Shown: positions 33,708 to 58,229 of the stretch, in pieces
Layout of the letters: each line of letters begins with the position of its first letter
Position numbering within the stretch: the first letter of the stretch is position 1
From: Mobula hypostoma
Taxonomy: Eukaryota
Assembly (NCBI RefSeq): GCF_963921235.1
Contig: NC_086097.1
Span: 62,064,001-62,128,000, forward strand
Direction of reading: 5' to 3'
Length of the DNA stretch: 64,000 nt
The notes under the pieces: model-generated
Seen by the model: only the letters and a program-made list of their open reading frames with translations
Database searches by the model: none
Told to the model about the DNA's origin: nothing
Position numbers and translations under genes: made by a program

Positions 33708-34116
33708 AAACACAAGACAATCTGCAGATGCTGGAAATCGAATGCAACACACAAAGAATGCTGAAGGACCTCAGGAGGTCAGCCAGCATCTATGATCTAT
33801 GGAAAAGAGTAAATAGTCAACTTTCTGTGCCAGGCCCATCTTCAAGACTGGGAATGAAGGAGGAAGATGCTTGAATAAAAAGGGGGGGGCGGAAGAGGCA
33901 AGCTGGAAGGGCCCAGCTCGTGACCTTTCCTGCCCACCTGGCTTCACTTATCATCTTCCAGCTAGCCTCTTTCCCCTCCCTACACCTTTTTATTCAGGCA
34001 TTTTCCCCATTCTTTCCTTTCCTGAAGAAGGAGCTCGGTCCAAAACGTTAACTGATTACACTTTTCCATAGATGCTGCTTGACCTGCTGAGTTCCTCCAG
34101 TGTTGTCTGTGTTGCT
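33708..34116. mobile_element. Fold-back PLE pLTR element with degenerate hammerhead motifs
   Basis: Inverted arms 33745-33850 vs 34015-34116; CTGAAGA-AGGAGCTCGGTCC-AAAACGTT at 34022-34049. Confidence 0.75.
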
Positions 34117-34744
34117 TGAAGTTTATAGGAGAGTAGTTGGTTTAGACAGTTCCTCATTATGTGCAGGAATCATGTTCAAGATGACTTTGCACATGGAACA
34201 TGGAAAATGCAGCAAGAAGCTTGTTTTCCACCTAACATTTCAAAAGCCGGAAACCTTTATTTCAAGTAGCTTGCAGGAATAACATTTAAAATCAACTGGA
34301 CCGCATTGTAAGCATGATTCCATTACATATGATGCCTTTACTGTAATAATAATCTTGGCTACAGGAAGAAAACTTTTGCTGAGCCATCTTGTGTTGAAGT
34401 GTGTAAACTCACAGATTGTTGTCACAAATCAAACCATTTGAGGAGGGGGGAGCTGGGGGGAACCTTGAGGTTCTCACATTTAGCTGTCGTTCATTCTTTG
34501 GGGCACTTCTCTGTTTTCGTGGATGTTTTGCGAAGAAAAACTTTTCAGGATGCATATTTTATACATTTCTCTGACATTGAACTTGATCTTTGAACCTTTG
34601 AACATTATAGATATGTTATTACCAAATACTACCCAGTGGAGATTAATCAGCATTGTGGCTAAGCTAGAAAATGCAGACAACTATTAACATCACAGATTAC
34701 AGCTGCATTCTTAGCTCCCTATGCTACTCCTTTTGCACTCACAA

Positions 34745-50036: not shown

Positions 50037-50615
50037 GCATTACACAAAATGCTGGAAGAACTCAACAAGTCAGGCAGCTTCTGTGGAGGGGAATAAACAG
50101 TCAATGTTTCAGGGTGAGATCCTACATCTAGAAAGGAAAGGGACAGAAGCAGAATGGAATGAGGAATGGGAAAAGAGGGAGGAGGGAGGTGGAGAAATTA
50201 CTGAAGTTACAGTAATCAGTTTTCATGCCTTATGTTAGAGGTTACTATGTGGTGTTCCTTCTTTCTGAGTTTGGACTCATCATGGCAGTAGTGAAAGCCA
50301 TGGATAAATATATCATAATGGGTATGGGAAGTCAAACTGAAATGGGTAGCCACTGGGATATCCTGCCAATTGTGGTGCTTGAAAAAGCTGTCCCCCAATC
50401 TGTATTGGCACCAACACAATCACCTGTTAGTATGTATTCCATCTAATCCTCTACCTTCTTGTTCTGGCTTCTGCCCCCTTCCTTTCCAGTCTTGCTGAAG
50501 TGTCTCAGCCCAAAACATTGACTGTTCATTCCCCTCCTTAGATCTACCTGAATTTTGTTCTTACTGACTTTTGTGTGTGTTGTTCAACATTTCCATCGTC
50601 TACAGAAAATCGTGT
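50037..50615 (-). mobile_element. Penelope-like element fragment: GIY-YIG C-terminus, sense pLTR and upstream inverted pLTR
   Basis: ORF 50216-50419 RLGDSF..H...DIPVATHFSLTSHTHYDIFIHG..YCHDE..LR..EHHI; arms match the 56411-56631 family. Confidence 0.8.
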
Positions 50616-50669: not shown

Positions 50670-51366
50670 TTGGTATCCAAGAAATGAGTGTATGCTTGTG
50701 GCCTTCTGCTATGGTCGCCCATCCACTTCAAGGTTCAATGTGTTGTGCATTCAGAGATGCTCTTCTGCACACCGCTGTCGTAACATGTGGTTATTTGAGT
50801 TATTGTCACCTTCCCGACTGCTTAATCCAGTCTGGCCATTCTCCACTGATTTATCTCATGAACAAGGCGCTTTCACCCACAGAACTGCTACTCTCTGGAT
50901 GGTAATGAGAAAATCTGCAGATGCTGAAAGTCTGAGCAACACACACAAAATGCTGGAGAAACTCAGCAGGTCAGGCAGCATCTACGTAAAAAAGTACAGT
51001 CGACGTTTCTGTCCGGTCGAAGGGTTTCAGCCCGAAATGTCAACTGTACTTTTTTCCACAGATATTCCCTGGATGATTTTTGTTTTACACCTCATTCTCT
51101 ATAAACCCTAGAGACTGTTGTGAGTGAAAATCCTAGGAGGCCAACAGTCTTGCAGAGACTAAACCACCCCGTTTGGCAACAACAATCTTTCCACAGTCAA
51201 AGTCACTGATCACATTTTTCCCCATTCTGATGTTTGGTTTGAATAATAATTGAACCTCTTGACCATGTCTGCATGTTTTAATGCATTGAGTTGCTGTGAC
51301 ATGATGGACTGATAAGATACTTACATTAATAAACAGGTGTAAAGACTAAAGTAACCACTGAGTGTA
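50670..51366. mobile_element. Tc1/mariner-like non-autonomous element (right end), interrupted by a PLE insertion
   Basis: Right end GGTGTA...TAAAGTAACCACTGAGTG+TA resembles fish Tc1-like TIRs (recognition only); left TIR not seen. Confidence 0.5.
50902..51065 (-). mobile_element. Fold-back PLE pLTR-derived insertion
   Basis: TSD-like TCTCTGGATG (50892-50901) / TCCCTGGATG (51066-51075); inverted AAAAAGTACAGTCGACGTTTC / GAAATGTCAACTGTACTTTTT. Confidence 0.75.
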
Positions 51367-54600: not shown

Positions 54601-54893
54601 CAGCCAAGAAGTAAAAGCTGCCCACCCATCCCAATGCTGACCTCTCAATGAGTGCATGTTCCACTGACTTTCCTTTCCTGCAGTCCCCAATCATTCCTTG
54701 ATCTTGTTGGCACTGTGCAAGCTTGTTGTTGCAACGCCACTCAGCCAGCTGACTTAACTCACTCCTGTGCACCTCTTCATCAGCATCTGAGATTTTATGA
54801 GCAACGGTGGTGTCATCAGCAAATATATAGATAGCATTCAAGCTGTGCAGTCACACAGGTATGAGCAAACAGAAAGTGGAGCAGTGAGCTAAG
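54600..54893 (-). mobile_element. Rex1/Babar copy A, RT core segment
   Basis: LSSLLHFLFAHTCV..NAIYIFADDTTV...GSFYFLAV; homologous to 37290-37530. Confidence 0.8.
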
Positions 54894-56410
54894 TGGACCC
54901 CTGTGGAACACCACTGGTAACCGGCAGCCAGCCAGAATAGAATCCCTTTATTCCCACTCTCTGTTTCCTGCCAATCAGCCAACGCTCTATCCACGTATGT
55001 AACTTTCCCGTAATTCCATGGGCTCTTATCTTGTTAAGTAGCCTCATGTGTGGCACCTTGTCAAAGGCCTTCTGAAAATCCAAATATACAACATCCACTG
55101 CATCTCCCTTGTCCAGCCTATTGGTAATTTCCTCAAAAAATTGTAATAGGCTTGCCAGGCAGGATTTTCCTTTAAGGAATCCATGCTGAGTTCTGCCTAT
55201 CTTGTCATATGCCTCCAGGTACTTAGTAACCTCATCCTTGACAATCGAATCCAACAACTTCCCAACCATCAATGTCAAACTAACAGGTCTATAATTTCCT
55301 TTTTGCTTCCTTGCCCCCTTCTTAAATAGAGGAGTGACATTTGCAATCTTCCAGTCCTCTGGAACCATGCCAGAATCTATCGACTTTTGAAAGATCAAAG
55401 TTAATGCCTCTGCAATCTCCACAGCTACTTCCTTCAGAACACGAGGGTGCAGTCCATCTAGTCTGGGAGATTTATCTACCTTTAGACCATTCAGCTTCCA
55501 GAGTACATTCTCCGTCGTAATTGTGACTGCGCACACTTCTCTTCCCTGCCACCCTTGAGTGTTCGGTATACTGCTGATGTCTTCCTCAGTGAAGACTGAT
55601 GCAAAATACTCGTTCAGTTCCTCTGCCATCTCCTTATCTCCCGTTACAATTTCTCCAGCATCATTTCCTATTGGTCCTATATCTACTCTCACATGTCTTT
55701 TACTCTTTATATACTTGAAAAAGCTTTTAGTATCCTCTTTGATATTATTTGCTAGCTTACTTTCATAGTTAATCTTTTCCCTCTTAATGACCTTCTTAGT
55801 TTCCTTTTGTAATATTCTAAAAACTTCCCAATCCTCTGTCTTCCCACTAATTTTTGCTTCCTTATATTCCCTCTCCTTTGCTTTAACTTTGGCTTTGACT
55901 CTCTTGTCAGCCACGGTTGCATCTTTTTTCCCATTCGAAATTTTTTTTTTGGAATATACCTGCCTTGCACCTTCCTCACTTCTCGCATAAGCTCCAGCCA
56001 CTGCTGCTCTGCCGTCCTTCCCACCAGTATCCCTTTCTAGTCAACTTTGGCCAGTTTCTCTCGCATGCCACTGTAATTTCCTTTACTCCACTGAAATACT
56101 GACACATCAGATTTCGGCTTCTCTTTTTCAAATTTCACAGTGAACTCAATCATGTTATGATCACTGCCTCCTAAGGGTTCCTTCACCTCAATCTCTCTAA
56201 TCACCTCCAGTTCATTACACAATACCCAATCCAGTACAGCCGATCCCCTAGTGGACTCAACAACAAACTGTTCTGAAAAGCCATCTCGCAGACATTTTAC
56301 AAATTCTCTCTCTTGGGATCCAGTGCCGACCTGATTTTCCCAATCCACTCGCATGTTAAAATCCCCCACAATTATCATAACACTGCCCTTCTGACAAGTC
56401 TTTTCTATTT

Positions 56411-56631
56411 ACACACATCAAAGTTGTTGGTGAACGCAGCAGGCCAGGCAGTATCTCTAGGAAGATGTTTCAGGCCAAGACCCTTCGTCAGGACCCTAAG
56501 TCCTGACGAAGGGTCTCGGCCTGAAACGTCGACTGTACCTCTTCCTAGAGATGCTGCCTGGCCTGCTGCGTTCACCAGCAACTTTGATGTGTGTTGCTTG
56601 AATTTCCAGCATCTGCAGTATTCCTGTTGTT
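56411..56631. mobile_element. Fold-back PLE pLTR-derived insertion in the CR1 APE region
   Basis: Arms 56411-56494 and 56500-56594 inverted around CCTAA; TSD AGTCTTTTCTATTT (56397-56410) / AGCCTTTTCTATTT (56632-56645). Confidence 0.9.
56499..56534 (+). ncRNA. Minimal type I hammerhead ribozyme motif (PLE-type)
   Basis: AGUC-CUGACGA-AGGGUCUCGGCCU-GAAAC-GUC^-GACU: stem I AGUC/GACU, complete core, palindromic ACGU stem III. Confidence 0.75.
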
Positions 56632-57196
56632 AGCCTTTTCTATTTCCTGTTGTAATTTGTAGTCCACATCACTGCAGCTGTTTGGAGGCCTATAAATGCC
56701 ATCAGGGTCCTTTTACCCCTGCGATTTCTTAGCTCAACCCATAAAGATTCTGCACCTTCCGATCCTATATCACCTCTTTCTAATGATTTAATATCATTTC
56801 TTACCAATAAAGCCACGCCTCCCCCTCTGCCTACCTTCCTATTCTTCCGATACACCGTGTATCCTTGGACGTTCAGCTCCCAGAGACATGCATCCTTTAG
56901 CCACGTCTCAGTGATGGCCACAATATCATACCTGCCAATCTGTAGCTGTATGACAAGATCATCCACCTTATTCCTTATGCTGCGTGCATTTAAGTATAAC
57001 ACCTTAAGACCAGTATTTGGTACTTTTCCCTTTGATTTCACTACAACTCTATTGCACTGCAACTCATCCCAATGGCTACAAATTTGCCCCATCACCTATC
57101 TGTCTTTCTTGACATCTTTACTGCTCACTATCATAGATTTATTTCTGTTTTCCCCTTCCTCCGCTCTATCATTCCGGTTCCCATCCCCCTGCCAAA

Positions 57197-57958
57197 TTAG
57201 TTTGAACCCCACCCCCCAACAGCTCTATTAAACCTTCCCGCCAGGATATTGGCCCCCTTTGGGTTCAGGTGTAACCTGTCCATTTTGAACAGGTCATACT
57301 TCCCCCAGAAGGGATCCCAATTATCCAAGAATCTGAAGCCCTGCCCCCTACACCAGTCTCTCAGCCACGCATTCATCTGCCTGATCCTACTATTCTTGCC
57401 CTCGCTAGCACGTGGCACAGGTAGCAGTCCCGAGATTACTACCCTGGAGGTCCTGCTTCTCAGCTTCCTTCCTAACTCCCAGAAATCTCTCTTCAGGACC
57501 TCCTCCCTTTTCCTATCTATGTCATTGGTACCAACATGTACCAAGACAACTGGCTGCTCACCCTCTGCCTTCAGAATATTCTGGACCCGATCTGAGACAT
57601 TCTGCACCCTGGCTCCTGGGAGGGAACACACCATGCGGGTATCTCTATCAGGCTCACAGAATCTCCTGTCTGTTCCCGTGACTATGGAATCCCCTATGAC
57701 TACCGCATTCCTCTTCTCCCTCGTTCTCTCCTGCACAACAGCGCCAGGCTCAGTGCCAGAGACCTGGTCACCGTGGGCGTCCCCTGTCAGGTCATCCCCC
57801 TCAAAGGCATCTAGAACAAGATATTTGTTGCTGAGGGGGATAGCCACAGGTGTGCTCTCCACTATCCGGGCATTTCCCTTCCCTCTCTTGACAGTGACTC
57901 TGTTTTCTGACCCCTGTAGCCTAGGGATGACTACCTCCCTGTAGCTCCTGTCTATCAC
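57197..57958 (-). CDS. CR1 ORF1p SGNH/GDSL esterase-like domain (N-terminal zinc-finger part frameshifted, about 58000-58125)
   Basis: VIGDSIV, LPGA, HVGTND and DRLHLN blocks; upstream CSGCQMWE...HIC. Confidence 0.88.
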   Translation of the reverse strand: MIDRSYREVVIPRLQGSENRVTVKRGKGNARIVESTPVAIPLSNKYLVLDAFEGDDLTGDAHGDQVSGTEPGAVVQERTREKRNAVVIGDSIVTGTDRRFCEPDRDTRMVCSLPGARVQNVSDRVQNILKAEGEQPVVLVHVGTNDIDRKREEVLKRDFWELGRKLRSRTSRVVISGLLPVPRASEGKNSRIRQMNAWLRDWCRGQGFRFLDNWDPFWGKYDLFKMDRLHLNPKGANILAGRFNRAVGGWGSN

Positions 57959-58229
57959 CTCTTCACTTTCCCTGATAAGCAGTAGGTCATCAAGCTGCAG
58001 CTCCAGATCCCTAAAACGGTCTCTGAGGAGCTGCGTCTGGCACAGATGTGTCCATCAGGGAGGCTGGAGGTCTCCCAGAATTCCCACATCTGACACCCTG
58101 AACAAAGCACTAACCCTTCAGGAATGCTATCTAATTCTACGGGAATGAAACAGGAAAAATAAGTCTACTCACCCACTTACCTCGCCAAACACACAAACTT
58201 TTTAAACCATTAGCTCATATCGTTAGCTC

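Follow-up and report, generated by a model that had tools for sequence, protein, structure and literature searches.

Published accounts of EN+ Penelope-like elements (PLEs), of the hammerheads in their pLTRs and of their copying in vitro offer the nearest parallels to the insert described here. Insertions of EN+ PLEs (Adineta vaga Penelope, PMC3846280; PMC8557442; D. virilis, PMC2377424) carry a head-to-head inverted 5′-truncated copy, a TSD, partial tandems and a one-sided tail of 30–40 bp. All of these recur, with a tail of 37 nt, in the family represented in the window, i.e., the whole stretch of 64,000 nt of Mobula hypostoma DNA that was analysed (contig NC_086097.1). The differences are that the arms are here reduced to the pLTR alone and that 5′ ends form a strong peak at helix I of the hammerhead, for which no counterpart is reported in the available portions of PMC3846280, PMC8557442 and PMC2377424. 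The hammerheads of metazoan PLE pLTRs have, like ours, a 4-bp helix I, an extra base before helix II and a palindromic, loopless helix III (PMC4209133). Opposite-strand pairs of them lie 100–700 bp apart in Schistosoma (PMC4209133), whereas the opposed motifs are here ~5 nt apart. Cleavage of minimal type I hammerheads as dimers was described by Luense et al., as cited in PMC6765202.

Poseidon of Anolis carolinensis (PAc) has been studied in vitro (PMC11167929). Both target strands were cut and extended, uncleaved RNA was the main template, the RT started at two internal sites, one on either side of the tail, and RNA 3′ of these start sites was required. As in our family, the PAc hammerhead lies at the pLTR–ORF junction, two end sites bracket the tail and the cut site is not used as an end, while the parent of our insert differs in having the CX2-5CxxC linker of Neptune/Nematis. 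Inverted pLTRs are not discussed in the available main text of PMC11167929, which leaves the later transposition steps unvalidated, and PMC8557442 names inverted pLTRs and tails as still to be explained. Twin priming of L1 (Ostertag and Kazazian 2001, via bioRxiv 10.1101/2024.12.14.628481) likewise extends both target ends and yields an inverted 5′ piece. The two pieces of an L1 insertion reportedly derive from separate regions of the RNA; our two arms represent a single stretch and have two fixed starting sites. Animal non-LTR retrozymes (bioRxiv 10.64898/2026.07.22.740005) are also non-coding, carry a type I hammerhead and are related to PLE pLTRs, but they are head-to-tail tandems, whereas the stub is an inverted pair without sign of self-propagation. 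The window insert was considered as a non-LTR retrozyme and rejected as such, being an inverted pair in a single insertion instead of head-to-tail hammerhead monomers.

The inverted pLTR, the one-sided tail, the TSD and the minimal hammerhead are all already-published PLE features. In open-access text (subscription journals and Repbase/Dfam lay outside the scope) no paper was found on this PLE family or on dual priming by PLEs. As an object the window insert is ordinary, one of about ten thousand young stubs with a published layout, and its value is statistical: thousands of stubs likely record where a PLE starts and stops copying its RNA.

The insert, its CR1 host and its parent

The features of the locus are as follows, in window coordinates; the numbering used below takes 56499, where hammerhead helix I begins, as position 0.

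56397..56410: left TSD, 14 nt, present once at empty CR1 sites
56411..56494, minus strand: inverted pLTR arm without the tail, +1 to +95
56495..56498: junction bases, which vary between almost all copies
56499..56534, plus strand: minimal type I hammerhead motif of a PLE pLTR, predicted cut after 56530, layout as in PMC4209133
56535..56594, plus strand: sense pLTR arm continued, reaching the first end site (~+96 to +105)
56595..56631, plus strand: one-sided 37-nt tail, up to the second end site (~+133)
56632..56645: right TSD, one mismatch
54889..58054, minus strand: CR1-type LINE hosting the insert, its APE split by it
57197-58054, minus strand: esterase ORF1 of the CR1 host
54889-56040, minus strand: RT of the CR1 host
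56640-57095 and 56037-56408, minus strand: the two halves of the CR1 APE

An earlier note on this DNA had claimed a 14-bp TSD with one mismatch and an insertion that splits a CR1 APE ORF, and both claims are borne out. The direct repeats bounding 56411-56631 are identical at 13 of 14 positions, and six CR1 copies elsewhere span the insertion site with a single target stretch (flank overlap 14 nt in five, 12 nt in one). As other CR1 copies have this stretch once, the TSD is real. Each half of the APE matches Pfam Exo_endo_phos, and the esterase ORF1 and RT of the CR1 are found on either side. The CR1 target at the end of the right TSD (56642-56652) matches ~10 nt of the PLE's own 3′ end, probably by chance.

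The note had also described a palindrome around a 5-nt spacer, which holds for the arms and the spacer and fails for the insert as a whole. The arms (56411-56494 and 56500-56594) pair except at four mismatches and over 11 nt missing from the left arm, while the 37 nt of the tail (56595-56631) are unpaired, so that the insert is asymmetric and not fully palindromic. RNA of the whole insert is predicted to form one hairpin of −169 kcal/mol, a fold-back far beyond chance (z = −22). The junction bases begin like a short re-copied piece found in many sister centres.

When the sense arm alone was used as query, matching copies extended upstream by 3 to more than 1,500 nt, and the right arm proved to be the end of a coding PLE unit of 3,512 nt. 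This unit is repeated in part in L176, with a direct repeat of 533 nt; a pLTR by partial tandem is also present in L159 and L152. The hammerhead-plus-133-nt block stands in direct orientation immediately before the ORF in L176 and in L177, a full-length copy starting at about −5, and therefore the window arms are PLE pLTR ends. Past the tail end, the sequence of full-length copies continues into the ORF. The parent has a single ORF, in which RT motifs, DKG, a CX4CxxC linker and a C-terminal, CCHH-type GIY-YIG were read in the translations of L061, L176 and L177, every translated copy being frameshifted or truncated. Pfam gave only a sub-threshold RVT_1 (E 0.002) and no GIY-YIG match for this ORF. 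The Neptune and Nematis clades have a CX2-5CxxC linker preceding GIY-YIG (PMC8557442). By its predicted protein, the parent is an autonomous Neptune/Nematis-type EN+ PLE of ~3.5 kb of Mobula hypostoma. The insert has the layout of an EN+ PLE insertion, i.e., an inverted 5′-truncated copy, a one-sided tail of 30–40 nt and a TSD, and we are confident that it is a PLE stub formed at insertion. Elsewhere in the window lie five more fragments of the same or older PLE lineages (2746-2861, 33708-33793, 34020-34123, 50203-50366 and 50908-51015). Several PLE copies (L176 and the flanks of L010, L033 and L043) apparently sit inside CR1-type LINEs, like the window copy.

The hammerhead motif

The plus arm was said by the earlier note to carry a complete hammerhead core and the minus arm an incomplete one, and so it was found. 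The former has helix I and helix II, both core boxes, a palindromic, loopless ACGU helix III and an NUH triplet, GUC, ending at 56530, which together make up a minimal type I motif; in the latter the 11-nt deletion has taken out the 3′ strand of helix I together with the cut site. It is more likely that an extra unpaired A precedes helix II, which corrects the first reading; a helix II placed after an extra unpaired base is described in PMC4209133. Its closing pair is G–U in the window copy and G–C or G–U in older lineages. A check with hammerhead covariance models, suggested by the note, turned out negative, as an Rfam scan of 54–59 kb gave no hammerhead match at E ≤ 10.

Comparison of 37 older copies, retrieved with a query that contained the motif, with the young majority gave a match of 0.89 for the core, 0.91 for helix I and 0.19 for position 7. 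Outside the motif, the match was 0.27 in the upstream 30 nt and 0.46 from +37 to +49. The block from +50 to +85, which is part of the sense arm at 56535-56594, is also fairly conserved across PLE lineages (0.67, p = 0.08 versus the core). Taken as a whole, the pattern fits selection on the hammerhead in the parent lineage, as far as genomic copies can indicate. In eight of the 37 older copies the core A6 is replaced by C (CUGC-N-GA), apparently in one variant-core lineage; copies of this group occur in L099, L122, L138, L192, L195, L224 and L245.

Predicted folding bears on whether the motif could act. Forcing the ribozyme fold on the plus strand costs 42.9 kcal/mol in RNA of the whole insert and 5.4 kcal/mol in a single arm. 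Since read-through RNA of either strand includes the complementary arm, which is predicted to bury the motif, the earlier proposal of a ribozyme on transcripts from either strand is doubtful. Among the short fold-backs, the complete motif is present on both arms in 11, on one arm in 20 and on neither in six (n = 37). The double-hammerhead fold of two motifs, at −9.5 kcal/mol against a dimer minimum of −28.3 kcal/mol, is not the predicted ground state, in agreement with reports that such motifs have low activity (PMC4209133) and with the protein dependence of the anole PLE hammerhead (PMC11167929). The hammerhead in the stub is inherited cargo that is likely silent in read-through RNA of the window hairpin, and in parent transcripts it would likely act as a weak ribozyme, dimer- or protein-assisted. 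Read-through of such hairpins is predicted to give double-stranded RNA of ~95 bp.

End sites and pairing of the arms

The family was surveyed in an unbiased sample of 158 stretches of 10 kb (1.58 Mb), drawn from fixed positions along 14 of the larger contigs; nine overlapping loci were left out of the young-pair and later counts. In this sample the 3′ (outer) ends are bimodal, at ~+91 to +107 and ~+126 to +134, which places two sites ~35 nt apart. All 31 adjacent pairs are head-to-head, none is tail-to-tail, and they are 96 to 2,903 nt long. Where both arms lie in the pLTR, one is tailed and one tail-less in every case (25/25). The same combination was found in 59 of 60 young pairs from all loci. 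L046, which has a tail on both arms, counts against the explanation that we prefer. TSD-like repeats of 11–18 nt flank 58 of the 60 pairs, and repeats of at least 9 nt occur in 4 of 60 mismatched-flank controls. Single-arm copies use both end sites (14 and 17 of 32, an assignment that is imperfect where the partner arm is less than 85% identical), several of them with clean TSDs, so that +98 can be regarded as an independent end site. The tail-less outer ends of pairs lie 3–4 nt inside the single-arm ends (medians ~97 versus ~101, p = 0.02).

The 5′ ends concentrate beside helix I. Between −12 and +12 lie those of 21 of 65 young arms, against an average of two in neighbouring 25-nt bins, and those of 16/48 insertions and 10/32 single-arm copies; these counts omit arms of less than 85% identity or cut by a stretch edge, and some starts at −9 are BLAST overrun into the similar inverted motif. 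The cut site was considered as the turning point and is not supported in the family, with a single young arm of 65 ending there (±5) and one paired arm of 50. Of 30 pairs, the tail-less arm is longer by more than 10 nt in 12 and the tailed arm in 13, the remaining five being within 10 nt. The 5′ ends of the two arms correlate (Spearman 0.85; 0.42 with p = 0.09 among 17 long pairs). Single-arm copies were also examined for very small inverted pieces at their 5′ junction, and these gave no systematic signal.

Fold-backs of the family form a length continuum from 96 bp to ~3,700 bp. Long ones of 2 to 3.7 kb are L062:4304-7999, L063:464-2533 and L101:5406-8308; L062, which is nearly symmetric, and L073 are near-symmetric giant palindromes. 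The sample holds 11 short fold-backs, which, if it is typical, extrapolate to ~24,000 genome-wide (95% range 12,000–43,000), and the five young ones in 1.58 Mb to ~11,000 (3,600–26,000).

Origin of the fold-back

The earlier note took the insert for a small non-coding, ribozyme-bearing retroposon mobilised by a PLE. That the hammerhead is of PLE type and the insertion PLE-made stands; a distinct fold-back family with its own unit does not. Among 37 short fold-backs there are 34 distinct centres, although 30 of the 37 were picked for likeness to the window copy, a choice expected to enrich for common centres; three centres recur, two of them on copies of different subfamily types, and the third is untypable. 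Common haplotypes occur among both the 49 short and the 41 long tailed arms compared, and no short-specific variant was enriched between these sets. Unique centres together with subfamily variants common to long copies indicate that the fold-back forms anew at each insertion, and neither one internal structure nor private variants shared by descent, as a non-autonomous family would have, were found. Non-CpG subfamily variants are common to both arms (e.g., +38: both arms in five, one arm in one), whereas CpG decay is arm-specific (both arms 0–1, one arm 5–7), so that the arms came from one source and then aged separately. Gene conversion behind the identity of the arms is unlikely, CpG changes being confined to one arm. 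In one exception, L041, the arms differ at two subfamily-diagnostic sites, possibly through two templates or conversion. A non-autonomous element whose own RNA, either the whole fold-back or a solo pLTR with an internal promoter, is the template mobilised in trans by the PLE would account for the high copy number of the short class and for its sharp size mode, and Penelope of D. virilis does have an internal, LINE-like promoter (PMC2377424). The diversity of centres, the continuous lengths, the absence of a short-specific variant and the fact that stubs do not contain the RNA 3′ of the tail required by the anole protein (PMC11167929) speak against it; we regard such an element as very improbable, and its whole-fold-back version as largely refuted.

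We consider it reasonably probable that two head-to-head copies of the pLTR end are made in one event, with both target strands primed on the same uncleaved RNA, and the window insert is likely a dead-end product. In this dual priming, the PLE protein would bind RNA of the pLTR–ORF junction and nick both target strands ~14 nt apart. One strand would be primed at ~+133 and the other at ~+98, which would leave a tail on one side only. On the 5′-most pLTR of a transcript, copying would reach the start of the RNA, beside helix I, after ~100–135 nt and run off there, whereas priming on a downstream tandem pLTR would give long copies. Short inverted matches may then let the cDNA ends re-prime and so become joined, and slippage in this step would make the centre variable. 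Judging from the 5′ ends of genomic copies, the transcript likely starts beside helix I. Dual priming is supported by the use of both sites in single-arm copies, by the strict pairing of the sites and by the 12 of 30 pairs with a longer tail-less arm. It is weakened by the correlated arm starts, by the tail-less ends lying 3–4 nt inside, by the differing arms of L041, and by L198 and L077, which keep a symmetric turn and have a deletion in one arm, so that asymmetry of the arms can be secondary and loses force as proof.

The correlated arm starts are expected if, with the same parent and the same dead end, the cDNA primed at +133 folds back, is copied on itself and is resolved near +98 by endonuclease or template jump. 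Such a snap-back explains the near-symmetric giants L062 and L073 equally well, fits the turn of L198 at a natural inverted repeat and the single haplotype of both arms, and has precedents in PMC3846280, where junction palindromes are read as self-priming, and in PMC8557442, where the tail is ascribed to endonuclease resolution. It leaves unexplained that the inverted arm has its end at a site shared with single-arm copies, it needs a later deletion in the 12 of 30 pairs with a longer tail-less arm, and five tailed arms (L077, L141, L166, L203 and L250) reach only to +76 to +93, just past the second site, though this is close to the limit of detection by BLAST. We hold it to be a somewhat unlikely alternative; a hybrid, with a short second-primed cDNA meeting the snapped-back strand, would be difficult to distinguish from dual priming. 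The pile-up of 5′ ends might also reflect a 3′ splice site at helix I, or pausing of the RT there, instead of a transcript start. A pyrimidine tract and (C/T)AG adjoin helix I in all lineages (the upstream alignment, pyrimidine-rich, retained 61 of 119 copies), and a branch-point-like motif is present in part of the young family. We take the tract and (C/T)AG to fit the initiator consensus as well. The D. virilis intron ends at helix I (PMC4209133). Against splicing, single-arm copies starting at 0 to +2 adjoin the TSD without an exon (L040, L050, L112 and L194) and in some copies (L102 and L177) the start precedes the AG, at −5 to −9. Logan contigs are uninformative on starts and ends; among the joints listed for them, none was a credible splice into the AG at helix I. 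The splice or pause reading appears distinctly unlikely.

In its full form, dual priming would have one RNP prime both target strands in a fixed order at two sites of a single uncleaved pLTR–ORF RNA, with run-off beside helix I on linear transcripts; we put this forward tentatively, at a little under an even chance. If true, stubs would be a genomic record of the missing step of PLE transposition, with a run-off like the retroviral strong-stop product, and a single rule would account for the inverted pLTR, the tail on one side and the dependence of long copies on tandem (or circular) RNA. Mobula hypostoma gives strict pairing of end sites, a 5′ peak at the ribozyme edge and no peak at the cut site, and this pattern of pairing and peak provides exact predictions for the existing in vitro system.

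At the centres of L013, L018, L025, L028 and L038, the end of the cDNA was re-copied in short direct pieces, which resembles the realign-and-extend repeat addition of a telomerase-related RT.
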